Of a stretch of DNA of 64,000 nt, positions 4,779 through 59,012 are shown piece by piece; position 1 is the stretch's first letter; every line of letters starts with the position of its first letter. The position numbers and the translations under genes are program-made. Source of the stretch: Patescibacteria group bacterium (lineage in GTDB: Bacteria; Patescibacteriota; Microgenomatia; Daviesbacterales; UBA10151); the NCBI GenBank assembly GCA_038064895.1, contig JBBTSA010000010.1, positions 182,616 to 246,615 of the forward strand. Direction: 5' to 3'. Below the pieces are notes generated by a model. That model was given only the letters and a program-made list of their open reading frames with translations. It did no database searches and was not told the origin of the DNA.

Positions 4779-4914
4779 ACAGAAAGTCTATTACTTACAA
4801 TCTATCGCTAATAAGATAAAATGCAATTGTGCCATTAGGATAGTAGATAATCTTTTTAATATCAAATGATAATTTGTGTTCCTTAATATATTCTACTATT
4901 TGTTTCATACCATA

Positions 4915-7509: not shown

Positions 7510-7524
7510 AATTTGATAACCTAA

Positions 7525-9874: not shown

Positions 9875-11529
9875 TATTGTTTAACTTCTAAAATATCAAA
9901 AGCATTTTCACCATTTAGAAAATTTACAGAAAGGATGCGGGGTATTTCTTTTGGAAAATCTTCACCTCTGCCAATAAATAATATTTTCTTTCCACTATTT
10001 TCTCTTACAATATCCTCAAACCTTGTCCCTTTATCTCCTAAATCAGGAAAGTAAAAATTGTCAAATTTAAGAACTCTTACCCAGTCGTATGTCTCAAATC
10101 TTATCAAGTTTGGATCATTTTGATATCTAACTGGATCATAGTTTAAATAAAATAATGTAAACATATGTGGTTCTCCATAATGTCTTGTAAAAACAATTAA
10201 ATCATACTCATCTTTGTGTTCTTTAATATATTGAACAACTTGTTTATATCCATATTGCCAATCTCTTGAGTAAGAGGAAGGATAAACAGAGTAATAATTA
10301 TATAGATAATTTTTTAAACTTACTATTATTACTATTGCTAAGATTAAGACTCCTATACATTGAATGTTTACGGAATATTTTTTAAACCATTTTACAAAAA
10401 TTAAAAATCCAAGTGCTGAAATTAACTGATAAAGGGGTGCAGCAATCAGAGTCCTCAATGCATGAGGAATACTATCACCTGTTGCAGATACAGGAATATA
10501 TGCTAAAAACAACCATGAGATTAAAAGGCCTTTAAATTTTTGCTTAAGAGAAAAGAGACTGATTAAACCAATTATTAAAAAGGGTGACTGAAATAAATAT
10601 AATTGCCCTATATTTTGGGCATGATGCTGCTTATGGGGAGCACCGGAAAAAAATAAAAATTGGGGCGTAAAGTGCGAAAGATAGTTTTTTGTAAAATAAA
10701 AAGATATATAAGTTACTTTATTGTGTATAAGACGAGGTATAGGTTTCGGCAGATTTGATTTTCCCCTATTCTCATTTATTCTCGGTATCAATCCCGGATC
10801 ATCTGTTATACTTACCAACTTATATCTTGCACTTCTCTCTCCAGATAGAATAAAAGGCGCCAAAGGTAACATTAGTACTGTGAACAAAACTGCCGAAAGA
10901 ACTACAACTTCTTTGAATTTAGCAAGATTTTTTCTATAGATTAAAGATGTAGCTATAAGAAATAGAGGTGTAAAAATTCTTGCCGAATTATATGTAAATA
11001 CAGATAAAGCAAAAGGTATCATACCAAAAACTAACCACTTTTGTTTTTTAAATCCGAGTACAAGAAGATAAATACCTAGAGTTACCCAAAATGTTGCGAA
11101 TGATGACTCAAATGAAGCACGTGTTAAATGAATATGCCAAGGAGAAATAGCAAGTAAAAATGAAGACGCTAACCCCGCCAAACTACTCTGGAAAAGTTCT
11201 TTTCCCAAAAAAAATACAACTATCACGGTTAAGATTCCGTAAACTATAGGTGTAACTCTTACCCCGAGCTCATTTAAACCAAATATTGTTACGCCTGGAA
11301 TGCTTGCATAAACTTGTACTGGGAGTTTAAATTCCCCATATGCTTTAAAATGTATTGGAAACAATTCCCCCCATTCATCTTTCCCGGTCCTTAAGATCGA
11401 ATATGCATTATATGCAATTGATACTTCATCCCAATTTAAAGAGGGGGGGACTTCTGTCACTTTATAAAATCTTAAAAAAAATGCTGCTACTGTTATTAAA
11501 AGAAGTACTGAAAAAACTTTACGGTTCAT
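9874..11529 (-). CDS. GT39/PMT/ArnT-like GT-C glycosyltransferase (array member).
   Basis: 'NWDEVSIAYNAYSILRTGKDEWGELFPIHFKAYGEFKLP', 'HFTPQFLFFSGAPHKQHH'. Confidence 0.7.
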   Translation of the reverse strand: MNRKVFSVLLLITVAAFFLRFYKVTEVPPSLNWDEVSIAYNAYSILRTGKDEWGELFPIHFKAYGEFKLPVQVYASIPGVTIFGLNELGVRVTPIVYGILTVIVVFFLGKELFQSSLAGLASSFLLAISPWHIHLTRASFESSFATFWVTLGIYLLVLGFKKQKWLVFGMIPFALSVFTYNSARIFTPLFLIATSLIYRKNLAKFKEVVVLSAVLFTVLMLPLAPFILSGERSARYKLVSITDDPGLIPRINENRGKSNLPKPIPRLIHNKVTYISFYFTKNYLSHFTPQFLFFSGAPHKQHHAQNIGQLYLFQSPFLIIGLISLFSLKQKFKGLLISWLFLAYIPVSATGDSIPHALRTLIAAPLYQLISALGFLIFVKWFKKYSVNIQCIGVLILAIVIIVSLKNYLYNYYSVYPSSYSRDWQYGYKQVVQYIKEHKDEYDLIVFTRHYGEPHMFTLFYLNYDPVRYQNDPNLIRFETYDWVRVLKFDNFYFPDLGDKGTRFEDIVRENSGKKILFIGRGEDFPKEIPRILSVNFLNGENAFDILEVKQ

Positions 11530-17387: not shown

Positions 17388-18454
17388 AAGAGGTTGTGAA
17401 GAATTTCCTGAGTAAATTTTTCCTCATTAAAAATCCTTGATCTTGCCCGTGCGCGCCTGGACATTTCCTGCCACTTTTCTTTTTTTTCGCTTAGCATTAA
17501 AGTATATTTTTTAAGCTGTTCAACCGTTTCCCACAAGAAACCCGATCTAGTGTGTTCAACAATTTCTATTTGCCCGCCTTTCCCCAAAACCACAGGTACA
17601 CATCCTCCCGCCATCGCCTCCGCTGTTGAAATACCAAAATGTTCCATTTTAGTCGGATCGCCTTCTCCATACCCTGAAGCATGCCAATAAATTTTAGACT
17701 CACCATAAAATCTTATCAGATCATCATACTCCAAATTTGGGTGAAAAAATATCGGTAAATTGTTTGCAAGTTTTCTAAGTTGCTCAACGTAAGGTTTATC
17801 GCCCTCTGATGCTGAACCAACCAGATGCAAACTCCATCCGGTTAATAGTCTGTCTGCAAACATTTTTTTGAATGTCTCTATTAAAAGAGCGTGCTTCTTA
17901 TCTTTCAAATAACCGAAAAAGCGTCCCACAGACAAAATATAGTTTTTCTTGTTTAAAGGTTTAATTTTGTCAACATCAACCGGGGGATAAATTACTTGAG
18001 AATAAAGCGGCCAAAATTTTTCAGAATTTTTTTTTGTAAACTCAGAATTGTAAATAATTAAATCCCATTGCTTTAGTTTCAACTTTCCCCATAAAGCATT
18101 TGCCTGACCCGCCAGGGGAGTCTGAATATGCATTATATTTCTTTTAGCTGAGGGGATAAAAATACTACCATCTGTTAGATAGAAAAGTATGTCATATTTT
18201 TTTAAAAAAGAAAATCTTTGTAGAAAACTTGATCCTTTCCCTATTGGGCCATTTATAAAATTCACCTTAACTATATTTAAATTAAATCTCTTTGAAAGTT
18301 CTCTTTTTAGGTAGTCTCCTCCTAAATCTGCAAGATGTTTATCCAATAAGACATCTACCCTTCCCAGAGAACAGAGAACCTCTGCAATTGTCATCATATA
18401 TCTTTCTCCCCCGCCAAATGTATCAAGGTATGGAGAATAAATTGCTATTTTCAC
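17384..18454 (-). CDS. GT4 glycosyltransferase (Glycos_transf_1).
   Basis: C-terminal 'GYGEGDPTKMEHFGISTAEAMAGGCVPVVLGKGGQIEIV' matches the E-x7-E retaining GT-B motif region. Confidence 0.7.
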   Translation of the reverse strand: MKIAIYSPYLDTFGGGERYMMTIAEVLCSLGRVDVLLDKHLADLGGDYLKRELSKRFNLNIVKVNFINGPIGKGSSFLQRFSFLKKYDILFYLTDGSIFIPSAKRNIMHIQTPLAGQANALWGKLKLKQWDLIIYNSEFTKKNSEKFWPLYSQVIYPPVDVDKIKPLNKKNYILSVGRFFGYLKDKKHALLIETFKKMFADRLLTGWSLHLVGSASEGDKPYVEQLRKLANNLPIFFHPNLEYDDLIRFYGESKIYWHASGYGEGDPTKMEHFGISTAEAMAGGCVPVVLGKGGQIEIVEHTRSGFLWETVEQLKKYTLMLSEKKEKWQEMSRRARARSRIFNEEKFTQEILHNLL

Positions 18455-19254
18455 AACTTAAATCCGTTTTCTATTAACCGCTGATCTATCTCTCTATAAA
18501 TCTCCTCACGTGGCTTTTCTTGCTGAAGCTCCCATAACCTAACATAACTAATTAACATGCTAAATGATTGTAATAAAGAATCCATAACACCAATTGTTCC
18601 GTTAAAAAATCCACCTCTTTTAATCCCCTGGTTAAAAATTTCTCCAAATAAGATTCTTAGAAACCTCCATCCTGACATTTTTGGATGTCCTGCCTCAAAT
18701 CTTAATTTCGCATCAATTTTGCTCCACTGAAGACTTTTTAAAACTATCTGATCTATATCACGGTGGGTCAAATGTAACAGCAGATTCTTTGCATATCCGA
18801 GTTTACCTTTAAACTTTGGCGATTCATGCACCTTACCCTTCCATCCCTCAAAATCCGATCTTTTAAAAAGCCTTATTACCCAATCTTTTTTATAGGGACC
18901 ATAACTTACTTCCCTACCAAAAATAATATTTTTTCTTGAAATTGCAAAAGCCGAATAATCTGTAAAGGTTACCAGAGATTCCAACTCACTTCGCAGCGAA
19001 GATAGTACACGCTCGTCCGCATCCAGATAGAATACCCATTCTCCCCGAGTTTTTTCAAATGCTTTATTTCTTAAACTGTCAAAATCCAAATCTTTAAATT
19101 CAAAAATTTTGCTGGTATATTCTCTTGCAATCTGTTTTGTTTTATCAGATGAACCATTATCAGCAATAATAATTTCATCTGCCCATTTAACTGATTCTAA
19201 ACAAGCTTTGATTCTTTCTTCTTCATTTTTTGCAATCACAATTGCTGATAACAT
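18451..19254 (-). CDS. GT2-like glycosyltransferase.
   Basis: 'LSAIVIAKNEEERI...IIADNGSSDKTKQIA...YLDADE'. Confidence 0.65.
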   Translation of the reverse strand: MLSAIVIAKNEEERIKACLESVKWADEIIIADNGSSDKTKQIAREYTSKIFEFKDLDFDSLRNKAFEKTRGEWVFYLDADERVLSSLRSELESLVTFTDYSAFAISRKNIIFGREVSYGPYKKDWVIRLFKRSDFEGWKGKVHESPKFKGKLGYAKNLLLHLTHRDIDQIVLKSLQWSKIDAKLRFEAGHPKMSGWRFLRILFGEIFNQGIKRGGFFNGTIGVMDSLLQSFSMLISYVRLWELQQEKPREEIYREIDQRLIENGFKL

Positions 19255-19259
19255 ATTTG

Positions 19260-20150
19260 TTAAATAAATTTTGAAAGTATCTTTTTAAATGGGTTGCCTT
19301 GTGCTTTGGCTTGCTTGAACCAATAATTTATTTGGTATTCACCATTTCTCTTCTCCTGTTCTAAATCAGATATTTTAATTACTTTATCTTCAAAAGAAGA
19401 CTTTTCCCAGACCTTCAAATATACTACTAGAAATGAGAGTGCCTGTAATAAACTCAATGCTAAACCATGCAAACCATCAGTATAACCTTTGTTTGCAAAA
19501 AAGCGAGAAAGAAATTCACTTAGAGGTTTTTGAATAAGATCAGACCATTCAAATTTATAACCATTACTTTTAAGTTCTTCTGCCTCAATAGCAGTATAGC
19601 GGTTCATTCTATTAATAAATTGTTCTATTGTTTGGTAATTATAATGAACTATCGCCCATTTCTCCTCCTCCTCAAGATCCAAACCTTCTCCTGAAACCTT
19701 AGGCTGCCTGTGAATATTATTATTCCACTTAACCTTACCTCTCTTGAAGAATCTTACATTAAGATCCGGCCACCACATTGAGGCTTTCATCCATTTATTG
19801 AAAATAATGTTCTTTCTGGGAATCCTTACATAATTTATCTGTCTCATTGAAGAGGCAATCTGTACTAATCTTTTAGCTAGAGTCTCTGGTACTTCTTCAT
19901 CAGGATCTAAAACCAAAACCCAGTCATTCGAAGCTTTAGCTATTGCAAAATTTCTGGCAGGTTCTACATACCTTACTCTTTTATGAAAAACTACTTTTGC
20001 ACCAAGCTTCTTAGCAATCTCAACAGTCTTATCGTCCGAATACATATCACAAATAATAATCTCATCTGCCCATTTAACAGACTGTACGGCTCCTGTGATA
20101 TTTTTCTCATCATTGAATGTATTTAAAACAGCTGATATTTTTTTTCCCAT
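19260..20150 (-). CDS. GT2-like glycosyltransferase.
   Basis: 'ISAVLNTFNDEKNI...IIICDMYSDDKTVEIA...VLDPDE'. Paralogous to 18451-19254. Confidence 0.65.
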   Translation of the reverse strand: MGKKISAVLNTFNDEKNITGAVQSVKWADEIIICDMYSDDKTVEIAKKLGAKVVFHKRVRYVEPARNFAIAKASNDWVLVLDPDEEVPETLAKRLVQIASSMRQINYVRIPRKNIIFNKWMKASMWWPDLNVRFFKRGKVKWNNNIHRQPKVSGEGLDLEEEEKWAIVHYNYQTIEQFINRMNRYTAIEAEELKSNGYKFEWSDLIQKPLSEFLSRFFANKGYTDGLHGLALSLLQALSFLVVYLKVWEKSSFEDKVIKISDLEQEKRNGEYQINYWFKQAKAQGNPFKKILSKFI

Positions 20151-31585: not shown

Positions 31586-33292
31586 TTAACTTATGGCCTT
31601 AATATAATAAGACGCCCATTTACGCACTTGCTTAAATTGAATGAGCAGCAAACTTACAAATAAGAATAAACCCAGGAGTGTTAACCAGTTGGCGATTACT
31701 CTAATTTGTGTGTCGAAAAGCCTGGCCTCTACTTCATGCTGACCTTTACCCAATATTATGGTCATAAGTCCCAAGCTGTTGTTTTTGTATTCTACACTTA
31801 CTTCCTTTCCGTCAACAAACACTTTCCAGTTGGGAAAAAAGTATTGCGATAAACGGATGATTGTATGAGATAAAACATCAGCTTTAAACTTAATCCGGTT
31901 GGTCCCCTCCTGGAAATCTCTTATTTCTGCATCACCCGTTAGGATTTGAAAACGTGCCTTTGCAAGTTCTGCAGGGGGCTCTTTGGCATATATTGGAAGA
32001 TAATCAAAAATTGATCTTTTTATTTGCTTATCCCAGTTTTCACCGCTTAAAAGCTCCTGATTTGTTATATTGATAAATTCTTCCGGCCGAAAATAGGAAA
32101 AGTTAAGAGTAACCGTTAAAAAAATTATTATTATCCAAAGTTTAGTAAGCCAACTTTTTCCTCTTAATGCCAAGCAAGAAGCACCTGTTACAAACGAGAT
32201 AAGAAATATTATTATTAAAAGAAATCTCCATGGAAATTGTAAATATTTTAGCGGATCCACCATATTCCATATAAATTCGGAGCGAGGATGGACCATAAAA
32301 ATTGCAAAAAGAGCGGCAGAAGATAAAACAAGGATTACTCTGGCTACCCAAGGATTCTTTTTCCAAAAAAACTTGATGCAGAAAAGTGTAAGAACCCATC
32401 CTAAAAGATGTATCCATCCGATTTGAAAAGATATCTTCTCCTGCTCTGCTCCCGGAACCTCTCTTATAGATGATCCATAACCCCAATCCCTTTTTATAAA
32501 TAACTCTTTTATGCCTTTAAAGTGCTCCGTGTAACCAAAATATCCGTACGTTGTAGTATCGATATGTACCAAGTTTTTTTCAAATACCATAGGGAGTGTA
32601 TAAAATGCTGAAATAGTAACTCCAAGCAGTAATGATAAAAAACTAAAATACAAAAATCTCATCCCTTTATCCTTGAAAAATAAAATGAGTATCCAAAGAA
32701 ACATAATTGGTAAAAATATCATGGTAGAAAGATTGTGAGAAAGAATCAGGCCACTTGTGCAAATGGTAACCAAAAGCATATTTGAAATACTCGTTTGTTC
32801 CTTAAGTTTTACAAAAGCCCAAAATATTGCCGGAAAAAACATTAATGCCCACATCTCTCCCATTGCTCCTCTCACATAAAAATCCAGGGCGTGATATGGG
32901 GCGAAACTATAAAATATTGCGGATAAAGCTCCGCCTTGCCTTCCCCAAAATTTCCGTGCTAAAAGATACATAAATACATATGATCCTAGAAAAGATACGG
33001 CAAATATCACCTTGCTGGAAAAAATCAAGTTTTTGGATATTACATAAATAACCTCTCCAAAATAATACGGTAAGGGAGCATAATAGTTAAAAATCGGATA
33101 GCCATATAACCCCCCTAAATCAGGAACCCATCTGCAAGGAATCTGTCCGTCTTTAATACATTTATCCATCTCAAAAAGCCGAATCGGAGAAACATCATCA
33201 TGATGTTTAAAATAAGGTGCTGCAAAAAGGGGCCAAAGTAATCCGGCACTTAAAATTAAACCTATTAGAAAAAATTTATTTTTCAAAATCAT
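31586..33292 (-). CDS. Polytopic membrane protein, 'CRWVPD' family paralog 1. Putative GT-C/YfhO-like glycosyltransferase, possibly the PTPS-related membrane family (tentative).
   Basis: 'HHDDVSPIRLFEMDKCIKDGQIPCRWVPDLGGLYGYPIFNYYAPLPYY'. ~11 TM helices plus a C-terminal ~180-aa soluble domain and a final TM. Confidence 0.45.
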   Translation of the reverse strand: MILKNKFFLIGLILSAGLLWPLFAAPYFKHHDDVSPIRLFEMDKCIKDGQIPCRWVPDLGGLYGYPIFNYYAPLPYYFGEVIYVISKNLIFSSKVIFAVSFLGSYVFMYLLARKFWGRQGGALSAIFYSFAPYHALDFYVRGAMGEMWALMFFPAIFWAFVKLKEQTSISNMLLVTICTSGLILSHNLSTMIFLPIMFLWILILFFKDKGMRFLYFSFLSLLLGVTISAFYTLPMVFEKNLVHIDTTTYGYFGYTEHFKGIKELFIKRDWGYGSSIREVPGAEQEKISFQIGWIHLLGWVLTLFCIKFFWKKNPWVARVILVLSSAALFAIFMVHPRSEFIWNMVDPLKYLQFPWRFLLIIIFLISFVTGASCLALRGKSWLTKLWIIIIFLTVTLNFSYFRPEEFINITNQELLSGENWDKQIKRSIFDYLPIYAKEPPAELAKARFQILTGDAEIRDFQEGTNRIKFKADVLSHTIIRLSQYFFPNWKVFVDGKEVSVEYKNNSLGLMTIILGKGQHEVEARLFDTQIRVIANWLTLLGLFLFVSLLLIQFKQVRKWASYYIKAIS

Positions 33293-33294
33293 GT

Positions 33295-34959
33295 TTAAAT
33301 CTTCCTAAAATACTTTAAACTTAAGCATAATGATACTAAAAATCCAAGTAATGAGGCAAAATCCAATGCAAGCTTATAGGGAGTTTCTGCAAAAAATACT
33401 TCCAGTTTATGTACTCCTTTAGGAACTAGAACGCTAATCTGGCCAAAAGGAGAGCCCGCTAATATATTTATATTCTTCCCATCCAGCTTAGCAAGCCAAC
33501 CCGGAAAATAATATTTATTAAAGTTTATTAAAGTTTCTTCATTTACATATACGCTTACAATAAAATGTAAATCATTGATTTTAATAACCGGGGCAATCGG
33601 ATTGCGCAGTGAAAAGATTATTGGATAAATCATATCAGGCCTTTGTTTGGAAGTTTTTGGCAGCCTTAAGTACTCTTCCTGATGCTGTAAATATTCCATA
33701 CTTACCTTTGGGTAGGGAATATATTTATTTAAATAATAGTCATCTAATCTTCCTAGAAAATGTTCAGGCTTAAAATATGACATTGTAGGATAAACTACAA
33801 AAGCCAAAAGAATAATTAAAATTATTTTTTCAAATTTCGACTTATCAAAAATAATAACAAGCAGGGGAATAAAAAAAGTTGTAAGAATTAAAAAACGCCA
33901 CGGAAATTGAAAGTATGGCATAAGCGGTAAACTATTCCATACAAAAGTTGATCTATGGTTTGTGAAAAAGATTGCAAGAAAAATCCCCGAACAAACCCAA
34001 ATAAATAATACCTTTTTGTCTTTGCTGATTCCTTTCCATTTCAAAAATAATAAGCCGGAGGCAAAAATTAGCACCAAAAGACTGGAATAGCCCAGAAAGA
34101 AAGACATTCCGTCTCCCTCGCCGGGAACCGATGCCCCGTAACCCCAATATGGGGTAAGAAGCTGTCGAATTGCAGGAAAATGATCATAAAACTTAAAGAT
34201 TGTGTCATATTTTACCAAGTTACTTTCTGTTATGGCCGGTAACCAAAAAAACGCGCTCATAAGTAGTGATAAAAAAATCATTAAAACCGATTTCCTAAAA
34301 AACACGCCTTTGTAGGATTCTTTCAAAAATTGTAAAAGAAGATAAAGTAAGACAAAAGGAATAAACATATATGCCGTAATATTGTGCGACAACACTAGGG
34401 AAGCAAGGGCTAGGGCTCCAATTCCTACCCACTTAAAATTTCTCTGCTGATTTAGCTTTGTTATTGATAAAATAACCAAAGGTAAAAATATAAAGCTTAA
34501 AACCTCCCCTATTGCTCCTCTTACATATAGGTCCACAGCCCTATAGGGTGTATAAATATATAAAAGTGCGCCTAAGAAAGATAAATTTGCCTTTACGAAT
34601 TCCCTAAGCAGAAGGTACATAAATATTCCGGACAGCGGTATAGTTATAAAAAATAATGCTTTGATACTATCAACAAATGAAAAACCGAAAAAAAGATGGA
34701 AAATTTCCGCAATATAAAATGGCAGTGGAAAAACAAAATTAAAAAGAGGATACCCGAAACCAAAACTCAAATCAGGAACAAACCGCGCAGGAATTTGTCC
34801 CAACTTTAACACTTTATCCATCTGGTTAAGCCAGGCGATATGCACTTCGTCCGAGGCCCCGTAAAAACCCGGCACAAAAAGCGCCCAAACAGCCGGTATG
34901 GAAAATACTAAAATTAAAAAGACCCAATATTTATTTAAAATTTTTTCTAATTTTTCCAT
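33295..34959 (-). CDS. 'CRWVPD' family paralog 2.
   Basis: 'SDEVHIAWLNQMDKVLKLGQIPARFVPDLSFGFGYPLFNFVFPLPFY'. Confidence 0.45.
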   Translation of the reverse strand: MEKLEKILNKYWVFLILVFSIPAVWALFVPGFYGASDEVHIAWLNQMDKVLKLGQIPARFVPDLSFGFGYPLFNFVFPLPFYIAEIFHLFFGFSFVDSIKALFFITIPLSGIFMYLLLREFVKANLSFLGALLYIYTPYRAVDLYVRGAIGEVLSFIFLPLVILSITKLNQQRNFKWVGIGALALASLVLSHNITAYMFIPFVLLYLLLQFLKESYKGVFFRKSVLMIFLSLLMSAFFWLPAITESNLVKYDTIFKFYDHFPAIRQLLTPYWGYGASVPGEGDGMSFFLGYSSLLVLIFASGLLFLKWKGISKDKKVLFIWVCSGIFLAIFFTNHRSTFVWNSLPLMPYFQFPWRFLILTTFFIPLLVIIFDKSKFEKIILIILLAFVVYPTMSYFKPEHFLGRLDDYYLNKYIPYPKVSMEYLQHQEEYLRLPKTSKQRPDMIYPIIFSLRNPIAPVIKINDLHFIVSVYVNEETLINFNKYYFPGWLAKLDGKNINILAGSPFGQISVLVPKGVHKLEVFFAETPYKLALDFASLLGFLVSLCLSLKYFRKI

Positions 34960-36595
34960 AAAAAATTAAATAACAAACCAAAAGAATAGAAACAAAAGAG
35001 ATAATATTGCCGGCTCTTCTTATGGGTGTATCATAAAATTTACCTAAAATTTTATGGTTGCCACCCTCAAGCATAATACTTACTCTACCTAAGTAATTAT
35101 CGGATCTTTGGTCAATCTCTTTCCCTTCCTCTGTTACTTTCCAGTTTGGAAAATCATATACGGGAAATTCGATCAAAGCAGGAGATTTAACACTTATTTT
35201 TGCCTCAAAATTATTGGAGGTTTTTTTAAAATAATAAATTTCCGCATCACCTGTTACAACAAGTGGTTTATCCCCTGTTTTCTCATTCGGCTCTATTGCT
35301 CCTTTTGGCAAATAATCCATGATTGATGCCTTCTGCTGTATCTCCCAAAGCTCCCCTGAAAGTTTTTCCCTATCGGTAAGGTAAGGATAAAATTTCTCGG
35401 GTTTAAAATAACCCCAGTTTAACAAAACCGTTGCTAAAACCAAAGCAAAAAAAGTTACCCTGACAAAGGAGGGTTTAAAAGTGTTAAAGAGAAATCCTGC
35501 CAAAAGGGAGGATGTAAAAATACTTAAAGATAGAAATCGCCAGGGAAATTGAACAAATCTTAACATCCCGATTGACTCCCAAATAAATGCCGATTTGTTA
35601 TGTGTCATAAAAAGCGAGAATGCAAAAAATACTAAAAGAGCAAAATATATAAAGAATATTCTCCTATTTTTTTTAAATAGCAAAGTAATAATGGATAGAG
35701 CTGCCAATATCCAGTGAGGCCAACCTACCTGGAAGGATATACTATCTAAAGGTCCCGGGAAAGATGCACCATATCCCCAGGATCTTTCAAAAAGTAATTG
35801 ACGAATCGTTACAAAATGTGCCCTAAAATCCAAGTCAAGCCTTACAAGATTCTCTATCTGCACCAGATCCTTTTCAAAAAAAGCAGGTATTATAAAAAAT
35901 GCCGATAGACCAACTCCTAAGCCTAACGAAAATATCAAAGACTTAATATAAACTACTTTTTTTCCCCAAAAAATTATTATAAACAAAACTAAAATTAGTG
36001 GTGCAAAAATAAGTGTCATGATGGTATGCGAAGTTAAGAATGCGGCAAATGAGAGGGCAAGACCTAATATAAATTTCAAAGAATTTTCCTTTAATATTTT
36101 AAGAGCAAAATAGATTACAAGGGGTATGACTACTATTGCAAAGCTTTCGGAAACAGCTCCCCGTACATAAATATCAAGAGCTCTATATGGAGCGAATATA
36201 TACAAAATAGATGCCAAAAGAGCAGGATACAAGGACATAAATTCTTTTGCTAAAAGAAACATTGAGAAGCCTGCAAAATATGCGGCTGCGAAAAATAAAA
36301 ATTTTGCACTCCCTACAAAGCCTAAAATATAGCTTGCCAAAGCGCCGATATAATACGGGAAAACATTATAATAGTTAAAAAGAGGGTAACCGTTTCCATA
36401 TCCCATGTCCGGAACCCACCTGCAAGGAATTTGCAAATCCGAAAAACACTTTCTCATCTCAAAAATCCTCATTACCTGCAAATCGTCATGATGTGAAAAA
36501 TAGCCGGATAAAAAAGTAGGCCAACTGACAAAGATAGATAGAACCGCGATGAAAATATAAAACCAATATTTTTTAAAAAAATTTTTTAAATCCAT
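34931..36595 (-). CDS. 'CRWVPD' family paralog 3.
   Basis: 'HHDDLQVMRIFEMRKCFSDLQIPCRWVPDMGYGNGYPLFNYYNVFPYY'. Confidence 0.45.
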   Translation of the reverse strand: MDLKNFFKKYWFYIFIAVLSIFVSWPTFLSGYFSHHDDLQVMRIFEMRKCFSDLQIPCRWVPDMGYGNGYPLFNYYNVFPYYIGALASYILGFVGSAKFLFFAAAYFAGFSMFLLAKEFMSLYPALLASILYIFAPYRALDIYVRGAVSESFAIVVIPLVIYFALKILKENSLKFILGLALSFAAFLTSHTIMTLIFAPLILVLFIIIFWGKKVVYIKSLIFSLGLGVGLSAFFIIPAFFEKDLVQIENLVRLDLDFRAHFVTIRQLLFERSWGYGASFPGPLDSISFQVGWPHWILAALSIITLLFKKNRRIFFIYFALLVFFAFSLFMTHNKSAFIWESIGMLRFVQFPWRFLSLSIFTSSLLAGFLFNTFKPSFVRVTFFALVLATVLLNWGYFKPEKFYPYLTDREKLSGELWEIQQKASIMDYLPKGAIEPNEKTGDKPLVVTGDAEIYYFKKTSNNFEAKISVKSPALIEFPVYDFPNWKVTEEGKEIDQRSDNYLGRVSIMLEGGNHKILGKFYDTPIRRAGNIISFVSILLVCYLIFYGKIRKNFK

Positions 36596-38249
36596 ATTTT
36601 ATGCTTAAAAAAGCAGTTAAGAAAAGGCTTACCAAGCTTATTATATTACCCAAAGATCTGACAGGAGTATCTTTAAGTTGTACTTCTATCTTGTGTTTTC
36701 CTTCCTCTATATTAAATGTTATCAATCCCAAACAATATTCTTCTCTCCTACAATCATTGTTTATGTGATGGATCAGCATCCCGTCCACCAAAACCTGCAT
36801 TCCGGGAAAATCAAAAAGCGGAAGCCGCAAAGTTGCCGCCTCTTTTACTAAAGCTTCTCCTTTTTGAAAATTGCTCCCTTTTTGATAACTTAAAAACTCT
36901 ACTTCCCCATCCAAAACATCAGGCAAAAGAGGTGCTTTTTCATTTGGAGGAAGTTTTGCAAAAATAGGTAAATAATCAAAAATGCTAATAGTTAGCTGCT
37001 TCTCCCAAGACTCACCGGAAAATTTATCCTTATCTGAAATATTTAACCATTCTTTTGGTTTAAAAAATGCCCCGTGTAATAAAATCAAAGAAAGAACTAC
37101 TACTAAAGTAAAAATAACTGCATAATTTTTGTTTAACTTTGAAATTAAAAAGGCCGAAATTGCGCCAAAGATAGAGAGTAAAAAAGCAGAGGGCACTAAA
37201 AACCTCCAGGGGAATTGTAACCACGCAAGAGTAGATATTTTTTCCCAAAAAAAGTAGGAGCGCTGATGCATTAAAAATAAATATATGGACTCTAAAGCAA
37301 AGAGCACCCACAAGGTTATGGAAAGTTTTTTGTATTTTTTGTAAAAGGTGAAGGATAAGAAAAGTGCCAATAAAGCAACTATCCAATGGACAATTCCCGC
37401 TGATAAAGAAACTTCATCAAAAAGACCAAAAACAGAAGATCCATAATCAAAATAATTTGAAAAAAGAAGTTGTTTAATGCTTACAAAGTGTTGCCTATAG
37501 TCAAAATACCCTCCAAGCAGTGTCTCAAGGTGTACATACTTCTTTTCAAAAATAAACGGCAAGATATAAAAAGCGGATAACCCTATCCCTAAAAGTACTC
37601 CGGAAATTATTTTGTAAAACATCTTCCATTTTTTTTCCAAACTTATTATTGTTAAAATCCAGACTAAAAGTATAGGGAGAAAAATAAGGGTTGTTAAATT
37701 GTGGGTTGTAATTAAAAGCGCTAATGAGACGGCAAGCCAAAGAAGATACTTTGTTTTCCCTATCCTTATAAGTTTTAGGGATGACCATAAAAGAAGCGGT
37801 AAAAATATGAAAGCTAAAAATTCACTCAAAGAACCTCTGACATATACCTGAACTGCTTTTACAGGAACTATTGTATAAAGAATTGATCCTAAACAAGCGG
37901 CATAGTCGTTTAAAAAAGATTTTAAAAAAATAAACATAGTCAGCGCGGAAAGTATAAAACCTAAAATAAAAAGAAGTTTTACCGAATCTATAATCTGTAT
38001 ACCAATCAGACTAAATATACCCCCTATATAATAAGGTAGAGGGGGATAATAGTTAAACTGTGGATAACCGTATTGATACCCCATGTCCGGAACCCACCTG
38101 CAAGGAATTTGAAAATCTTTTAAACAGGCAACCATCTGGTGAATCCTGAAAGCCTGAAGATCATCCTGCATTGGAAAAAAACCCGGCCTTAAAAGCTGGT
38201 AAAAAGTTAATAAATTAACCAAAATTGTTAAAATCAGCCAAAACCTCAT
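36573..38249 (-). CDS. 'CRWVPD' family paralog 4.
   Basis: 'MQDDLQAFRIHQMVACLKDFQIPCRWVPDMGYQYGYPQFNYYPPLPYY'. Confidence 0.45.
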   Translation of the reverse strand: MRFWLILTILVNLLTFYQLLRPGFFPMQDDLQAFRIHQMVACLKDFQIPCRWVPDMGYQYGYPQFNYYPPLPYYIGGIFSLIGIQIIDSVKLLFILGFILSALTMFIFLKSFLNDYAACLGSILYTIVPVKAVQVYVRGSLSEFLAFIFLPLLLWSSLKLIRIGKTKYLLWLAVSLALLITTHNLTTLIFLPILLVWILTIISLEKKWKMFYKIISGVLLGIGLSAFYILPFIFEKKYVHLETLLGGYFDYRQHFVSIKQLLFSNYFDYGSSVFGLFDEVSLSAGIVHWIVALLALFLSFTFYKKYKKLSITLWVLFALESIYLFLMHQRSYFFWEKISTLAWLQFPWRFLVPSAFLLSIFGAISAFLISKLNKNYAVIFTLVVVLSLILLHGAFFKPKEWLNISDKDKFSGESWEKQLTISIFDYLPIFAKLPPNEKAPLLPDVLDGEVEFLSYQKGSNFQKGEALVKEAATLRLPLFDFPGMQVLVDGMLIHHINNDCRREEYCLGLITFNIEEGKHKIEVQLKDTPVRSLGNIISLVSLFLTAFLSIKYGFKKFF

Positions 38250-54786: not shown

Positions 54787-55254
54787 TCATTTAGTTTCTT
54801 CCACTTTACCCACATCCATAAGCCAGCCTTCTTTCAGGGCTTTTTGAGTTTCACCAAATACTTTCACCTTTTTCCCCTCATATAGTGATAAATCAACAAC
54901 CGATGAAGTAAGAGCTACGGGAACGGTACCTTCACGCATTAAAATATGTGTGCCTTCTACATATTCTCCTTCATCGGACGGTTCGGGTCTTGCTTTAATC
55001 GTTCCTTCGGCAAAATCTCTAAATGTGCGGCTGTCTTGTTGTGCAGTCTTCGGAGTAGTTTCCAACAAGGAACTTTGAGCTTTGGAAGCGCCTTTGCTGG
55101 ACAGAATATAACCTGTTGCTAACCCTAAAACTGCAGCTGTTAAACATACTCCCAAGAGAAGTCGAGCCGAAGAGGTGGCAGGAGAAAACTTTTTTGCGAT
55201 TTTTTCATCACCTACATTTTGGGACTCATCCATCTTATCTAATATATTAACCAT
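54787..55254 (-). CDS. Hypothetical single-TM exported protein. The start is probably an internal Met; the ORF-track start at 55293 overlaps prfB.
   Basis: '...[20 protein letters not shown]' TM, then a hydrophilic domain. Candidate starts at 55254 (MVNIL) or 55233 (MDESQ). Confidence 0.4.
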
Positions 55255-56386
55255 AAAATGGAGAGTTGGCAAGTCCCCTAACCTCTGCCTCAATAAACCG
55301 ATCCAAATCCCCGTTCAAAACAGAACCCGTATCCGAGGTTTGAGTATTAGTCCTTAAATCTTTAACCATGTGGTACGGGTGCAGAACATATGATCTTATT
55401 TGTGTCCCCCATGAAGCTTGAGACTTACCACCTTTGAGCTGCTTTTTTAGCTCTTCATCCTTAGCCTGTTTGAGGACCCAAAGCTTGGATCTTAAAAGTT
55501 TTAAAGCATTTTCCCTGTTTTGAGCCTGGAATCTTTCTGTTTGAGCGGTAACTACAATACCACTAGGTTTGTGTTTAAGCCTTACTGCAGTTGATACCTT
55601 ATTAACATTTTGCCCTCCATGTCCACCTGATCTGAATGATTCAAACTCAATATCATCTTCTTTTATCTCAACTTCACTGGTACCCTCAATTACAGGCAAG
55701 ACCTCAACTAAGGCAAATGATGTTTGACGTAGCTTGTCAGCATTAAAAGGGGATTGCCTAACAAGTCTGTGGGTCCCTGCTTCCTTTTTTAGGTAACCAT
55801 AAGAGAGTGGCGCATGAACAATCATGGATATCTCCTTATATCCGGCCTCATCCCCAAAACTTTCATCTGTAATTTCATATTTCCACCCCATTCTTTCAAA
55901 ATATCTTTGGTACATCCTGGCAAGCATTGCTACCCAATCCATGGCTTCAACACCCCCTGCACCGGAGTGTATGGATATAATGGCTTCTGACTGGTCATGC
56001 GGGCCTGATAAAAAGAGTTGTAGTTCAAGCTGGTCTAAAGCTTTCTCTATTTTCTCTGTCTCTTTTTTTAAATCTTCTACCATGGTTGGTTCAGAAGACA
56101 TTTCCAGAGCATTATTTATTCTCTTTTCCAGATCATCCACTCCATTTAGTAATTTTTGTTTATCTGACAGCTGACGACTAACAACTGACGACTGCTTAGG
56201 ATCATTCCAAAAGCCTTCCTTCAAAGTTTGAGCCTCAAGTTCTCTAATTTCCTGAGCCAGCTGATCCTGATTAATAGAGGTCGAAATCTTCCCAAACCTC
56301 TCTTTTAACTCTTGTAATTTGGCTCTAATTTCATCCATGAGGTCAATTATACCCCGAAATCGGTCATTTTCCACCATTCTGGCCAA
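55247..56386 (-). CDS. prfB: Peptide chain release factor 2, encoded as one continuous ORF with no programmed +1 frameshift.
   Basis: 'VRQSPFNA' (SPF, UGA/UAA recognition), '[20 protein letters not shown]' (GGQ). 379 aa. Confidence 0.85.
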
Positions 56387-56404
56387 TTTGAGCGATTTTT
56401 AATT

Positions 56405-56450
56405 AAAATACCGAGGTTCAAACCTAATTAACCTCCGAGGTTATTTAGTT
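56405..56450 (-). terminator. Possible weak intrinsic terminator or structured element downstream of the 201-aa gene.
   Basis: Minus-strand transcript would read 'aaccucggagguu' (5-bp stem, 3-nt loop), then 'agguuugaaccu', then U-rich 'gguauuuuaauu'. The direct repeat 'ccgaggtt' occurs twice. Confidence 0.25.
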
Positions 56451-56459
56451 GGGCTTCTG

Positions 56460-57065
56460 TCATATTTGTGACTTTTCCAAATAATTTTCAATTACCCAAT
56501 CTGGAGTCCAAGTACCTGAGGAAAATGCATATCCTCCAAACTTATCTACTTTAAGATCTTTTAATCTTTTAGCTATTCCCACTGATCTTTCAGGCAATAA
56601 TTGGGTAGCTTGAGAGGTTAGTATAGCTTCAAGGATTCCCATCTCGCGTATTACTTCTGGGTTAGCCATGTTAATAAGTCTAAGTTGATCAAATAATTGG
56701 TGAGCTTGATGGATAACTTGTCTGGCAGTTACCATTTGTTCATGTGTTCCCAAAAATTCTGATGTTAGAGTTCCAACCCCATTAATTCTTGAAGCATCTT
56801 CCAACCTGAAAGGATGTTGGTATTGTGCTAATACTTTGACAGTTGGCCGCATATCTGCTTGACCAAAGAAAACACTGCTCGTCTCATGGATTGGTGCACC
56901 GCAGGGAACAAGTAATCCTTCATCAGTTAACTGTAATAGTTCACCATTTAACCTGATTCTGGTTAAACCAAAGCTGAATTCTCTATATCCATCAGCGTGT
57001 TCCTGGACAAACCTTGACCAGTTTACATCAGGAAATTGTTCTATTGATAACGTTTCTCTTGCCAT
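56460..57065 (-). CDS. Hypothetical cytoplasmic protein, no family recognised.
   Basis: 201 aa, hydrophilic, GC somewhat higher than the flanking genes. Lies between prfB and the direct-repeat-flanked cassette. Confidence 0.5.
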   Translation of the reverse strand: MARETLSIEQFPDVNWSRFVQEHADGYREFSFGLTRIRLNGELLQLTDEGLLVPCGAPIHETSSVFFGQADMRPTVKVLAQYQHPFRLEDASRINGVGTLTSEFLGTHEQMVTARQVIHQAHQLFDQLRLINMANPEVIREMGILEAILTSQATQLLPERSVGIAKRLKDLKVDKFGGYAFSSGTWTPDWVIENYLEKSQI

Positions 57066-57067
57066 AT

Positions 57068-57087
57068 TATCCTATAATTATAGGATA
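57068..57087. promoter_or_regulatory. Perfect 20-bp palindrome 'tatcctataattataggata' containing TATAAT. Candidate operator or promoter element.
   Basis: Read directly. It abuts the start codon (57065-57063) of the 201-aa gene and lies ~110 nt upstream of the 57196 gene. Confidence 0.3.
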
Positions 57088-57123
57088 TCTGTACCTAAAA
57101 GTCAAATGTGTTAAAATTCCTTC

Positions 57124-57161
57124 ATGATTTTGCATATTGATACCAAAGATCAAAAAGTTAT
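57124..57161 (+). repeat. Direct repeat copy 1: a decayed duplicate of the tsaB start (ATG plus 12 codons, mini-ORF MILHIDTKDQKVI*).
   Basis: 'atgattttgcatattgataccaaagatcaaaaagttat' versus 57812-57849 'atgactttacatattgataccaaagatcaaaaggttat', 35/38 identical. Confidence 0.8.
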
Positions 57162-57195
57162 TTAATCCTGTGGGCAAGTATGTTATCATTAATTT

Positions 57196-57411
57196 ATGAG
57201 AAAAGCTTCCAGTGAACAAACTATGATTCAGATTATGAGTAATCCTAAGTATAAGGGAAAACATATTATTGTTATGAAAGGTGAAGTTTTTACTGCAAAA
57301 ACTGGGGGTTCGGCTAATAAACTTTTGGATAGACTGGAAAAGAAATATCCAAAAGAAATCCCTGTAATTACTTATGTTCCTAAAGCAGATACTTTGATTC
57401 TATGGTTTTAA
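57196..57411 (+). CDS. Small protein, DUF5678-like (tentative).
   Basis: 71 aa. 'KGKHIIVMKGEVFTAKTGGSANKLLDRLEKKYPKEIPVITYVP' pattern. 10-nt overlap with the downstream protease gene. Confidence 0.45.
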   Translation: MRKASSEQTMIQIMSNPKYKGKHIIVMKGEVFTAKTGGSANKLLDRLEKKYPKEIPVITYVPKADTLILWF

Positions 57412-57815
57412 CTTTTCAGTTTGAAAAGTCCTTATCTCCTATTCTGGGGACAATCCATAGACCTGTTGCAAGAGTGTTATTTTATTCCCAACCAAAAAGA
57501 AAATGGTATGAAATATGGATGCTGGTAGATAGTGGGGCAGATTATACCTTGCTTCCAAGATATTTTTCCAACAGCCTCGGAGTAAATCTTAAAAAAGATT
57601 GCTGGGTTTTTAAAACAGCAGGCATTGGCGGAGAAGAAAAAGTTTATTTTTTAAAGAAGATTCAGGTTAGGCTGGGTGAGTGGACAAGACACATTCCAGT
57701 AGGGTTTCTTGATAGAGATGATATCCCGCCGCTTTTAGGAAGGCATCTCTTTTTGGAGACTTTTGAAGTACATTTTTCTCCTAAACATTTCATTACTTTT
57801 GAAGACAAACAATGA
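57402..57815 (+). CDS. Retropepsin-like (clan AA) aspartic protease domain protein.
   Basis: 'WMLVDSGADYTLLP' D-S-G-A active-site motif in a hydrophobic-hydrophobic-D-S/T-G-A context. 137 aa. ATGA overlap with tsaB. Confidence 0.55.
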   Translation: MVLTFQFEKSLSPILGTIHRPVARVLFYSQPKRKWYEIWMLVDSGADYTLLPRYFSNSLGVNLKKDCWVFKTAGIGGEEKVYFLKKIQVRLGEWTRHIPVGFLDRDDIPPLLGRHLFLETFEVHFSPKHFITFEDKQ

Positions 57816-57849
57816 CTTTACATATTGATACCAAAGATCAAAAGGTTAT
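57812..57849 (+). repeat. Direct repeat copy 2 (intact tsaB start).
   Basis: See copy 1. The two copies are 688 bp apart. Confidence 0.8.
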
Positions 57850-58126
57850 AAAGGTTGCCTTAAAAGAAAATGGCAAGGCAGTTAAAAGTTTATCTGCCAA
57901 AAATAAATACGGTTCACAGGTTCTTCTGCCACTCATCATTAAATTGTTAAAAAGGAAGGGTGTCAACCTAAGACACCTCGAAGGTGTCTTAAAAGAGGTT
58001 GAAGTGGAAACTGGACCTGGGTCATTTACAGGAATAAGGGTTGGGGTTTCTGTGGCAAATGCTTTAGGGTATTCACTGGGCATCCTAGTTAACGGGAAGA
58101 AAATAGAAACAGATTTGGTATACTAA
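57812..58126 (+). CDS. tsaB: Mini TsaB-like protein (N-terminal half of the YeaZ/TsaB ASKHA fold only).
   Basis: 'LHIDTKDQKVIKVAL...GPGSFTGIRVGVSVANALGYSLGI' matches the TsaB N-terminal region. Only 104 aa, versus ~220 aa for a typical TsaB. Confidence 0.55.
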   Translation: MTLHIDTKDQKVIKVALKENGKAVKSLSAKNKYGSQVLLPLIIKLLKRKGVNLRHLEGVLKEVEVETGPGSFTGIRVGVSVANALGYSLGILVNGKKIETDLVY

Positions 58127-58130
58127 TATA

Positions 58131-59012
58131 GTGATTTGGCAAAAAATCCATCATTGGTTTATTCCACATAAAGAAACACACAAAAAAGCCCGCCTTATTT
58201 CTTGGGAGGCATTGCTTATCTATGTCTTATTTTTTATATTTTTACAGGTTGGTTTTTCAATAGTGGGCTATTCAAAACCGGGAATTTTAGGTATTACTTC
58301 CAATGTTGATCAAAAAAAACTAATTGAACTAACTAACAAGGAGAGATCCCAAAAAGGCCTGCCACCCGTTTTAGAAAATGAAGCCTTGAACAAGGCTGCC
58401 GCTCTTAAAGCCCAAAACATGTTTGAGGAAAATTACTGGGCACATTTTGCCCCTTCCGGCAAAACCCCCTGGGATTTTATCTTAGGTTCAGGGTATAAAT
58501 TCACCTATGCAGGAGAGAATCTGGCCAAAAATTTTTATGCATCGAATGATGTGGTCTCTGCCTGGATGGCATCCCCAACCCATCGGGATAATCTGTTAAA
58601 CTCAAGCTATCAAGATATAGGTATTGCTGTAGTTGATGGAGTTTTAAATGGAGAGAGAACTACTTTGGTGGTACAGGAGTTTGGCAGTACACAAATATTG
58701 GGAACCCAACCTCTGGTAAACTCCGGCAGTAAAAAATCTGTTGTGCCGGTTGAGGAATATAACAAAAAACCCCAGCTTCTGACAGCATTCCAATCTCCAC
58801 AGGTAGGAAAACCTTTACTGGATCCTTTTCAGGCTTCCAGAGGGACAGGTATTGGTATCATCTTTTTGATAACTATTTTACTAATGGTTGACCTGTTGGT
58901 TCTGAAAAGAAGAGGAGTATTTAGACTAAGTTCCAACCATACTGCCCATATGGCTATCATGTCGGTTGCTTTGACAATGCTTCTTACCAGTAAACCGGGG
59001 AGCATATTATGA
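58131..59012 (+). CDS. Membrane-anchored CAP/SCP (YkwD-like) domain protein.
   Basis: N-terminal TM, 'NKERSQKGLPPVLENEALNKAAALKAQNM...NYWAHF...GENLAKNF...WMASPTHRDNLL' CAP motifs, C-terminal TM. Confidence 0.65.
   Translation: MIWQKIHHWFIPHKETHKKARLISWEALLIYVLFFIFLQVGFSIVGYSKPGILGITSNVDQKKLIELTNKERSQKGLPPVLENEALNKAAALKAQNMFEENYWAHFAPSGKTPWDFILGSGYKFTYAGENLAKNFYASNDVVSAWMASPTHRDNLLNSSYQDIGIAVVDGVLNGERTTLVVQEFGSTQILGTQPLVNSGSKKSVVPVEEYNKKPQLLTAFQSPQVGKPLLDPFQASRGTGIGIIFLITILLMVDLLVLKRRGVFRLSSNHTAHMAIMSVALTMLLTSKPGSIL

Follow-up and report, generated by a model that had tools for sequence, protein, structure and literature searches.

A DUF5678–retropepsin gene pair between two copies of the tsaB start in a groundwater Patescibacteria genome: probable insertion that duplicated a long stretch of the target

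We analyzed a 64-kb stretch (hereafter, the window, to whose positions all coordinates refer) of contig JBBTSA010000010.1 of the metagenome-assembled genome of an ultra-small Patescibacteria bacterium, which originated from Hainich groundwater and whose relatives are Daviesbacteria within the Microgenomates. In the gap between prfB (release factor 2) and a tsaB-like gene, the window carries a cassette of two small genes, encoding a DUF5678 protein and a retropepsin-like aspartic protease, bordered on each side by a copy of the tsaB start. The region is a scar of gene mobility and not a regulatory device, and an insertion accompanied by a long duplication of the target is its highly probable origin. 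The whole account, in which the entry was anchored by homology and the inserted module is of an addiction or defence type, is favoured with moderate confidence. The insertion footprint is a known but rarely documented one, now found with uncharacterised cargo in a new phylum.

The features of the site are listed below; labels L001–L173 denote the contigs and loci with which the window was compared.

57109–57117, + strand: native tsaB core promoter, an extended −10 box (TGTTAAAAT) 6 nt before the ATG at 57124, with the TGnTAnAAT geometry common to the relatives
57124–57161, + strand: upstream repeat copy, the original tsaB start, now a 13-codon mini-ORF (MILHIDTKDQKVI, TAA at 57163–57165); 35/38 match to the downstream copy, native promoter before it, majority states at the differing positions
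57162–57811, + strand: inserted cassette of 650 nt, from its promoter to the last sense codons, with nothing else in it; 92% nucleotide identity to L173 over this span, and missing from the empty-site relatives
57181–57189, + strand: the cassette's own extended −10 box (TGTTATCAT), 6 nt before the DUF5678 ATG; promoter conserved family-wide
57196–57411, + strand: DUF5678 protein, 71 aa (Pfam PF18929)
57402–57815, + strand: retropepsin-like aspartic protease, 137 aa (Pfam PF13650)
57812–57849, + strand: downstream repeat copy, the start of the functional tsaB (35/38 match to the upstream copy)
57812–58126, + strand: tsaB-like gene, 104 aa (Pfam TsaD; TIGR03725)

The two repeat copies, 57124–57161 (ATGATTTTGCATATTGATACCAAAGATCAAAAAGTTAT) and 57812–57849 (ATGACTTTACATATTGATACCAAAGATCAAAAGGTTAT), were equal at 35 of 38 positions and shared an exact run of 23 nt, in agreement with the initial annotation of this DNA, which had proposed a cassette integrated between direct repeats of the tsaB start. 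A search for the repeat elsewhere in the window returned the 23-mer core at these two places only, and none of 100 shuffles of the sequence reproduced it; the 38-nt repeat was the sole high-identity short direct repeat of the window not explained by paralogous genes. Exactly two open reading frames (ORFs), DUF5678 and the protease, were found between the copies, with an overlap of 10 nt, and the TGA of the protease gene shares an ATGA with the start codon of tsaB; the two overlapping genes and the overlap of the protease stop with the tsaB ATG are as first described. The arrangement is not an assembly artefact, because two independently assembled Logan contigs (L002 and L003) reproduce positions 56400–58200 base for base; a chance repeat was rejected on the shuffles. 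No compositional anomaly of the cassette was evident, its G+C content (35.1%) being near the mean of the window (34.5%).

We gathered 80 syntenic loci, using the CAP-domain gene downstream of tsaB as a handle. In seven Daviesbacteria genomes (L013, L015, L016, L020, L023, L028, and L029), prfB and tsaB are divergent with their ATGs 24–66 nt apart, the cassette is missing, and the tsaB start is single-copy. These empty sites bear out the integration of the cassette, and the arrangement of the window is not universal among its relatives. The sequence TGnTAnAAT, followed by a spacer of 6–8 nt and the tsaB ATG, was found in six of the seven (L013, L015, L016, L020, L023, and L028) and also in L017 and L022. 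Because exactly this native promoter geometry of the empty sites precedes the upstream repeat copy, that copy represents the start that tsaB had originally. Ancestrally, prfB and tsaB appear to have been divergent neighbours a few tens of bases apart in this Daviesbacteria lineage. The upstream copy had been described as a decayed remnant of the original gene start; it is indeed the original start, but it is not the more decayed of the two copies, as it keeps the native promoter and has the majority state at all three positions that differ between the copies. Contigs L001, L004, and L005, three independent assemblies of the same population, start inside the 3′ end of the protease gene, 30–53 nt before tsaB, and were for this reason rejected as empty sites; strain variation, or several copies of the cassette in the community, could account for their breaks.

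The closest homologue of the cassette (protein P0002 of locus L173, 90% amino acid identity) also lies immediately upstream of tsaB. The cassette span 57162–57811 has 92% nucleotide identity to L173, compared with ~70% in the flanking tsaB. The protease of L173 ends in its own TAATAA, followed by AAATTGCTTC and then by the tsaB ATG, and AAATTGCTTC matches the native −10 box and spacer, AAAATTCCTTC, of the upstream copy in the window. Since L173 carries a copied promoter before the tsaB ATG, the original duplication comprised at least 49 nt (core promoter plus 13 codons). The window is without 13 nt that are present in L173 between the protease end and the tsaB ATG; that the repeat coincides exactly with the ATG, and that the genes are coupled by ATGA, is therefore secondary in the window lineage, the longer duplication having been followed there by the 13-nt loss. 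The upstream remnant of L173 is mostly lost, with ~12 nt left beside the same left junction.

Within codons identical between the window and L173, third-position identity was 0.86 for the protease and 46/58 for DUF5678, compared with 0.54 for tsaB and 0.53 for the CAP gene. As its synonymous divergence is far below that of the flanking host genes, the cassette is much younger than the split of the hosts, and the divergence pattern indicates its recent horizontal transfer to one and the same site in the two lineages. At the three positions where the repeat copies differ, the upstream remnant agrees with the majority of 25 relatives and the functional copy with the minority, a polarity that weakly fits a downstream copy brought in with the cassette. 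An RNA-mediated mechanism, in which the duplication begins at the transcription start, the ATG of a leaderless mRNA, was considered in view of the repeats in the window, L075, and L117, which begin at ATG; it was dropped for the window, since the promoter is duplicated too in L173, and it is also countered by promoter sequence in the prfB-side repeats and by repeats at gene 3′ ends.

A separate set of 80 cassette loci was obtained by a profile scan of metagenome contigs. DUF5678 was encoded directly upstream of the protease in all 79 loci with enough upstream DNA, with the same gene overlap in 64 of them. Flanking repeats with a score of at least 17 were found at 15 of the 77 cassette loci scored (~9 of ~58 distinct contexts, or ~15%), as against 2 of 309 random 620-nt control segments (0.6%). 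These repeats are 19–133 nt long, differ in sequence at each site, and are taken from an adjacent host gene start, gene end, or spacer. The repeat is target-derived, because the same cassette family is flanked elsewhere by quite different host sequences, such as the asparaginase start in L006 and the 3′ end of tyrS; the proposal that the cassette took over the 5′ end of tsaB was accordingly not upheld. In ~60 distinct loci, conservation starts at a TTGACA-17-TAnAAT promoter ~6–8 nt before the DUF5678 ATG and stops at the protease stop codon; no sequence common to the loci was found upstream of this promoter or past the stop, and no terminal inverted repeats joining the cassette ends. Transposon ends were rejected on these grounds, conservation being confined to the stretch between the −35 box and the stop codon. 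No integrase or transposase was identified among the called genes around the window site, whose neighbours are housekeeping genes. An att, tRNA, or non-coding RNA element was also rejected, as neither a tRNA nor an Rfam family was matched in the window.

Close homologues of the cassette occur before ATP-synthase genes, beside genes of phosphoenolpyruvate (PEP)-utilising enzymes, near lgt, and near an integrase/ParA region, and none of the 80 metagenome loci adjoins tsaB. The cassette recurs at the 3′ end of tyrS in several divergent genomes (L119, L145–L148, L151, and L167/L169) and at the 3′ end of a gene encoding a 1066-aa protein (L136, L149, L161, and L170). At the latter site the hosts are 87–90% identical and the proteases only 64–82% identical; the proteases diverge more than the hosts, so cassette alleles have apparently been exchanged at fixed sites. 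Recurrence at the two host-gene ends suggests, from these identities, allele swapping or repeated use of fixed sites.

The footprint also surrounds unrelated cargo. In L006 (GCA_964551255.1), which has a cassette of the same family (77% amino acid identity) in the same gap though not adjoining tsaB, three copies of the asparaginase gene's 5′ end are present within 4693–6305: before the cassette, before an NYN gene, and at the real asparaginase gene. The copy before the NYN gene is a mini-ORF whose stop overlaps the NYN ATG (ATGA-coupled), and L006 represents serial insertion at one gene start. The three copies in this locus set apart a 63/82-aa winged-helix-like ORF, the DUF5678–protease cassette, the NYN gene, and the asparaginase gene. 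A ribbon-helix-helix (RHH)–PIN gene pair in L019 is flanked by copies of the prfB start equal at 20/20 positions, and in L075 (8250–9096) the initial 44 nt of ugd (UDP-glucose dehydrogenase) occur in two copies (43/44), one on either side of a reversely oriented RHH-PIN pair; the upstream ugd copy keeps the native TGCTATAAT promoter, and a different TGATATAAT precedes the downstream copy. A DUF2283-containing pair in L037 is flanked by the prfB start with its promoter. Single PaaX_M/Cas2-like genes are bracketed by direct repeats of 24–37 nt in L044 (3718–4355), L017 (4450–5128), and L025 (3820–4490). The proteins encoded by these three genes have 187–203 aa and apparently a membrane segment, and the insertions of L017 and L025 are orthologous. 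In L078 (10867–11661), an IS200-like Y1 transposase gene (223 aa) was found bracketed by a 35-nt direct repeat just downstream of trmD. Elements of the IS200/IS605 group normally make no target duplication, which makes L078 unusual.

The prfB|tsaB gap is a hotspot that collects small accessory genes. Other relatives have 0.35–4.7 kb of unrelated cargo there, among which are orphan genes as well as genes for RHH-PIN, NYN, asparaginase, Bro-N, DUF378, DUF2079, and ABC transporters.

Both family assignments made in the initial annotation were confirmed by Pfam above the cut-offs: the DUF5678 protein matched PF18929 (E 2e-7, 31.1 bits, cut-off 23.2), and the protease matched Asp_protease_2 (PF13650; E 9e-7, 30.0 bits, cut-off 24.3) with the motif VDSGAD. 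Among 37 protease sequences, residues D43, G45, and A46 of the catalytic motif D43-S-G-A were invariant and position 44 was S or T; the family motifs were an invariant D-[ST]-G-A-D-Y-T-L-L-P, GIGG, and PPL.GR. The AlphaFold2 (AF2) model of the protease had a predicted local distance difference test score (pLDDT) of 87.5. Foldseek matched it, with a probability of 1.0, to the proteases of HIV-1, HIV-2, and SIV (E ~5e-6, target-length template modelling score (TM) 0.62–0.72) and to APRc of Rickettsia (5c9f; E 1.2e-5, target-length TM 0.54); a search by sequence gave no match in the PDB. The 137-aa protein is predicted to be a retropepsin-fold aspartic protease, the Pfam match, the catalytic motif, and the modelled fold all agreeing with those of this group. 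As in other retropepsin-like proteases (PF13650/PF13975; APRc), the D-[ST]-G-A motif is present, and the model suggests a single retropepsin lobe that would need dimerisation for activity. In contrast to the membrane-anchored APRc, the cassette protease is soluble, with 137 aa and an extra N-terminal beta-hairpin of ~30 residues, and it differs from other retropepsins in being always paired with DUF5678 and moving as a cassette.

The DUF5678 protein has a small alpha-beta-beta-alpha-beta core and a highly conserved C-terminal tail, P.AD.LILW, predicted to be disordered; the pLDDT of its AF2 model was 76. Foldseek gave no significant fold match of this model in the PDB (best E 0.87), and a known antitoxin fold was rejected for this protein. 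Four PADLOC profiles of PDC-M08B were matched by the protease (best E 1.9e-6). No restriction or modification domain was significant in the cassette in Pfam, NCBIfam, or PADLOC, where matches to REase_II had E > 0.01. Phage relatives were absent: no PHROG was matched, and neither single-sequence nor profile queries found a relative among the 2.9 million viral contigs of IMG/VR. A phage-derived module, as had been suggested, was hence not borne out, and a phage origin or moron was rejected. No paper was found on the function of DUF5678, on PDC-M08, or on this footprint in Patescibacteria.

By analogy, the cassette may be a selfish addiction-type pair, a reading that we adopt tentatively and to which we give somewhat less than an even chance. 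An addiction- or defence-type module would fit two small genes that are strictly paired, have a promoter of their own, reside in hotspots next to modules such as RHH-PIN, and have a history decoupled from that of the host. The resemblance to toxin-antitoxin modules that had been remarked on is borne out as far as a strictly conserved mobile pair with a toxin-antitoxin-like genomic ecology is concerned, while the function itself is what we infer from it. Like type II toxin-antitoxin systems, among them the RHH-PIN (VapBC-like) pairs of the same hotspot, the cassette consists of two small, co-directional, overlapping genes, the smaller first, with a promoter of their own; it is patchily distributed in variable hotspots beside bona fide toxin-antitoxin pairs, with a phylogeny decoupled from the host, and its adjacent small genes are co-inherited in 79/79 loci. 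In contrast to those systems, no known family of toxins or antitoxins includes either protein, and the putative effector is an aspartic protease and not an RNase, kinase, or similar enzyme. DUF5678 would restrain the protease, possibly via its conserved C-terminal tail, which on the models could plausibly occupy, or be cleaved in, the protease cleft; such restraint would account for the persistence and spread of the module. The pair is a strictly paired and widespread module and a candidate protease-based addiction or defence system, and provides a first functional lead for DUF5678.

The insertion could have proceeded as follows. A minimal module (promoter, DUF5678, protease, and stop codon) would have entered the gap without a transposase or integrase, on imported DNA comprising the cassette and an adjoining piece of the conserved tsaB 5′ region. 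One end would have been anchored by homology in the tsaB 5′ region and the other joined illegitimately inside the recipient's tsaB start; with the joint within the anchor region, the outcome would be a duplication instead of a lethal deletion, here of the tsaB core promoter and first 13 codons (at least 49 nt). In a gene-dense genome with a gap of 24–66 nt between two essential genes, deletions would be lethal, and selection would keep duplications only. The upstream copy would have retained the native promoter and turned into the 13-codon mini-ORF. The later 13-nt loss in the window lineage would have deleted the duplicated promoter and the stop codon belonging to the protease itself, after which the protease ended in the tsaB ATGA. 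Flanking repeats of conserved host sequence may serve as homology arms for spread to relatives, and they may also permit scar-free excision via the 23-nt exact core. A length of 23 nt is near the minimum for RecA-type recombination. We give this homology-anchored route a nearly even chance. Homology-facilitated illegitimate recombination in naturally transformable bacteria is reportedly known from the work of de Vries and Wackernagel (2002), classically with deletions rather than duplications. It shares with the proposed route one homologous anchor and one illegitimate joint, and a joint inside the anchor would duplicate the anchor; consistent with it are the downstream copy, with its minority states, and the promoter and spacer linked to the cassette in L173. 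To our knowledge, it has never been demonstrated in Patescibacteria.

Several observations weigh against this account. About 85% of the cassette contexts have no detectable flanking repeat, and the footprint is thus either short-lived or not the sole entry route. The unit's sharp limits, at the −35 box on one side and the stop codon on the other, would not be predicted by random DNA fragments and do not follow from this account. The polarity argument draws on three sites only. A search pattern across the predicted empty junction matched nothing in the metagenomes of the Joint Genome Institute (JGI), and the nearest empty-site genomes have only ~65% CAP protein identity, making the comparison one between species; as no strain-level empty site was found, the timing and polarity of the insertion rest on parsimony. 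With regard to function, DUF5678 matched no known antitoxin or PADLOC partner and has no recognisable DNA-binding antitoxin fold (RHH, helix-turn-helix (HTH), AbrB, or Phd), and the module matched no curated toxin-antitoxin family in Pfam, NCBIfam, or PADLOC.

The sharp limits of the unit in many independent loci would be accounted for by an enzyme acting in trans or encoded by the cassette, which makes widely staggered cuts (~20–130 nt), followed by transposition-like insertion and gap fill-in. The excess of flanking repeats over the controls would also be expected under such a mechanism, and the completion of the stop codon by target bases in the window, L119, and L170 suggests a precise right end. 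We nevertheless consider it quite unlikely: neither terminal inverted repeats nor conserved end motifs are present, the length of the duplication varies sevenfold, neither cassette protein has a nuclease or integrase fold, and the tight right end in the window is explained by the secondary 13-nt loss. Furthermore, the cassette proteins cannot be required, since unrelated cargo (RHH-PIN, the DUF2283 pair, NYN, and Cas2-like genes) has the same footprint. Site-specific integration, with the repeat as attL/attR of an integrase encoded elsewhere and the cassette as a cis-mobilisable remnant of a larger element, would agree with a repeat size typical of att sites, with the three copies between successive cassettes in L006, which resemble tandem accretion at an att site, and with the homologue L010, located near an integrase, ParA, and an ATPase like that of type IV secretion systems. 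The repeat, however, is local host sequence at every site with no core common to the sites, the called genes around the site in the window and in its relatives include no integrase, a tRNA target is absent, and the integrase-adjacent cassette of L010 itself has no flanking repeats, which makes this explanation very improbable.

The genes could also be ordinary partners of tsaB, such as a processing protease of the t6A machinery, with the repeat as a by-product of local tandem duplication. Apparent co-transcription and translational coupling with tsaB, a G+C content equal to the window mean, and the same cassette–tsaB adjacency in L173 speak for such a partnership. It is contradicted by the context survey, in which no metagenome cassette adjoined tsaB and close homologues lay beside ATP-synthase, PEP-utilising enzyme, and other genes; moreover, seven relatives have tsaB without the cassette, and the synonymous divergence of the cassette is discordant with that of tsaB, so that we regard this possibility as almost negligible. 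The last alternative leaves the insertion history unchanged and concerns function: the module could serve in anti-phage defence, or combine a protease with its chaperone or substrate, instead of being an addiction pair. The match of the protease to component B of the PADLOC candidate PDC-M08, hotspots held in common with NYN, PIN, and Cas2-like genes, and the lack of a DNA-binding antitoxin fold in DUF5678 point in this direction. DUF5678, however, does not match the partner protein of PDC-M08, PDC systems including PDC-M08 are candidates only, and the boundary with toxin-antitoxin systems is blurred, many defence systems being toxin-antitoxin-like; we rate this alternative as somewhat unlikely.

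An insertion that makes a long duplication of its target, favoured here, has a close counterpart in restriction-modification genes. Insertions of these genes without mobility genes are flanked by long and variable target duplications and were described mostly from naturally competent bacteria (Furuta, Abe and Kobayashi 2010, NAR, PMC2853133); the screen in that study used repeats of > 30 bp and inserts of < 20 kb (PMC2853133). In both cases a small selfish unit lies between direct repeats of tens of bases that are single-copy at empty sites, repeat length and sequence vary by site, no transposase, integrase, or terminal inverted repeat is involved, and the hosts are naturally competent or thought to be so; competence and pilus genes were reported to be prevalent in Patescibacteria (PMC12455944). 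Three of the four features of such insertions were found here: the length of the repeat (38 nt at 35/38, reconstructed as at least 49 nt), a single-copy empty site (in the seven Daviesbacteria genomes, between species), and a mobility-gene-free insert of < 20 kb (650 nt, two genes). The fourth, restriction-modification cargo, was absent; the cargo is a DUF5678–retropepsin pair here and RHH-PIN, a DUF2283 pair, NYN, or Cas2-like genes in the relatives, and the double-strand-break activity invoked for restriction-modification genes cannot be the common cause. Further differences are that the hosts are Patescibacteria, that many of the duplications (19–59 nt) are below the > 30 bp threshold, and that the duplicated stretch in the window includes an essential gene's promoter and start. 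This type of insertion is said to have been described for restriction-modification genes by Nobusato et al. in 2000 (Gene 259:99), a study cited by Furuta et al.

The cassette is not one of the other types of mobile elements. A site-specific integrative element would have a common att core and a cognate integrase, whereas the repeats are unrelated between sites and no integrase was found near the window site. Insertion sequences (IS), transposons, and miniature inverted-repeat transposable elements (MITEs) have terminal inverted repeats and a fixed short duplication; here, no inverted repeat joins the cassette ends and the duplications are 19–133 nt long. Integron cassettes are promoterless and carry attC, in contrast to a cassette with its own promoter and nothing conserved past its stop codon. 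The relatives in phage genomes or families that a phage or prophage moron would have were likewise not found.

An old loose end is the movement of small selfish modules, toxin-antitoxin pairs for example, that are not carried by plasmids, phages, or transposons. A footprint of this kind was earlier described only for restriction-modification genes and credited to their cutting of DNA; the same footprint around a non-nuclease module and other small cassettes, some of them nuclease-like, in a phylum of tiny genomes argues for a general host-recombination route. In its most extended form, which we consider unlikely, the reading would make DUF5678–retropepsin the flagship of minimal "promoter-to-stop" cassettes of Patescibacteria, actively moving between and within genomes by a dedicated transposase-free mechanism with long, variable target duplications, favouring conserved host-gene ends as portable homology arms, coupling themselves to essential genes, of which tsaB is one, for their expression, and constituting a new protease-based addiction or defence system.

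The tsaB-like protein of the window matched Pfam TsaD (E 1.6e-8) and TIGR03725 (E 1e-16, profile positions 2–88 of 212, below the NCBIfam cut-off). In these Microgenomates (the window and L013–L044), tsaB encodes 95–119 aa, corresponding to the N-terminal half of the canonical TsaB; since tsaB is of this length in all of these relatives, the cassette did not truncate it. A promoter scan identified no + strand promoter at 57700–57811, before tsaB. The tsaB of the window would thus have no promoter of its own, and its translation would be coupled to that of the protease. On transcripts from the native promoter, translation would begin with the mini-ORF, followed by read-through of DUF5678 and the protease into tsaB, and those from the cassette promoter would likewise run through DUF5678 and the protease into tsaB. 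An insertion may in this way capture the expression of an essential gene: tsaB, to judge from its sequence context, would depend on cassette transcription and translational coupling, entrenching the cassette.

The remaining features of the gap are:

55247–56341, − strand: prfB (release factor 2), left border of the variable gap (Pfam PCRF and RF-1)
56460–57065, − strand: orphan gene, 201 aa; no family match, own promoter
57068–57087, no strand assigned: perfect 20-bp palindrome (TATCCTATAATTATAGGATA), established by reverse-complement identity

The true ATG of prfB is likely at 56341, with a TGGAAA-16-TATAAT promoter at 56373–56346 found by the promoter scan; the MEE.. start of the relatives aligns to residue ~16–17 of the listed ORF. 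Both the family-less 201-aa gene and the perfect palindrome, which had been pointed out upstream of the cassette, were verified. The 201-aa protein matched nothing in Pfam, NCBIfam, PADLOC, or PHROGs and had a single homologue (47% identity) among 5.8 billion proteins. Its gene has a near-consensus TTGACT-17-TATAAT promoter at 57105–57077 according to the promoter scan, is missing from the empty-site relatives, and has no flanking repeat around it; it is a separate and older occupant of the prfB|tsaB gap. Both strands of the palindrome contain TATAAT, and the palindrome, which overlaps the orphan gene's −10 box, may be an operator or bidirectional promoter. Just past the stop of the orphan gene, at 56411–56448, a near-palindrome (CTAATTAACCTC/GAGGTTATTTAG, 11/12 with a 1-nt loop) and a repeated CCGAGGTT were found. 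This element between prfB and the orphan gene is a candidate for a terminator or protein-binding site.

Further instances of the footprint were not present in the window, where the other direct repeats belonged to paralogous genes or had low identity. At 18451–20150, a 34-nt stretch with the motif VKWADEIII is 91% identical between two glycosyltransferase-like genes (267 and 296 aa) that are tandem paralogues, which is ordinary paralogy and no insertion footprint. Two families of 161–165-nt direct repeats with 66–72% identity, at 33057–38183 and 7272–11468, are presumably paralogous coding segments. Among the database records compared, many contigs that are Microgenomates by synteny and sequence (L014, L016, L019–L021, and others) are titled "uncultured Gammaproteobacteria bacterium" (binchicken co-assemblies), "Lysobacterales", or "Spirochaetia"; as taxonomic labels, they appear to be placeholders or mistaken.

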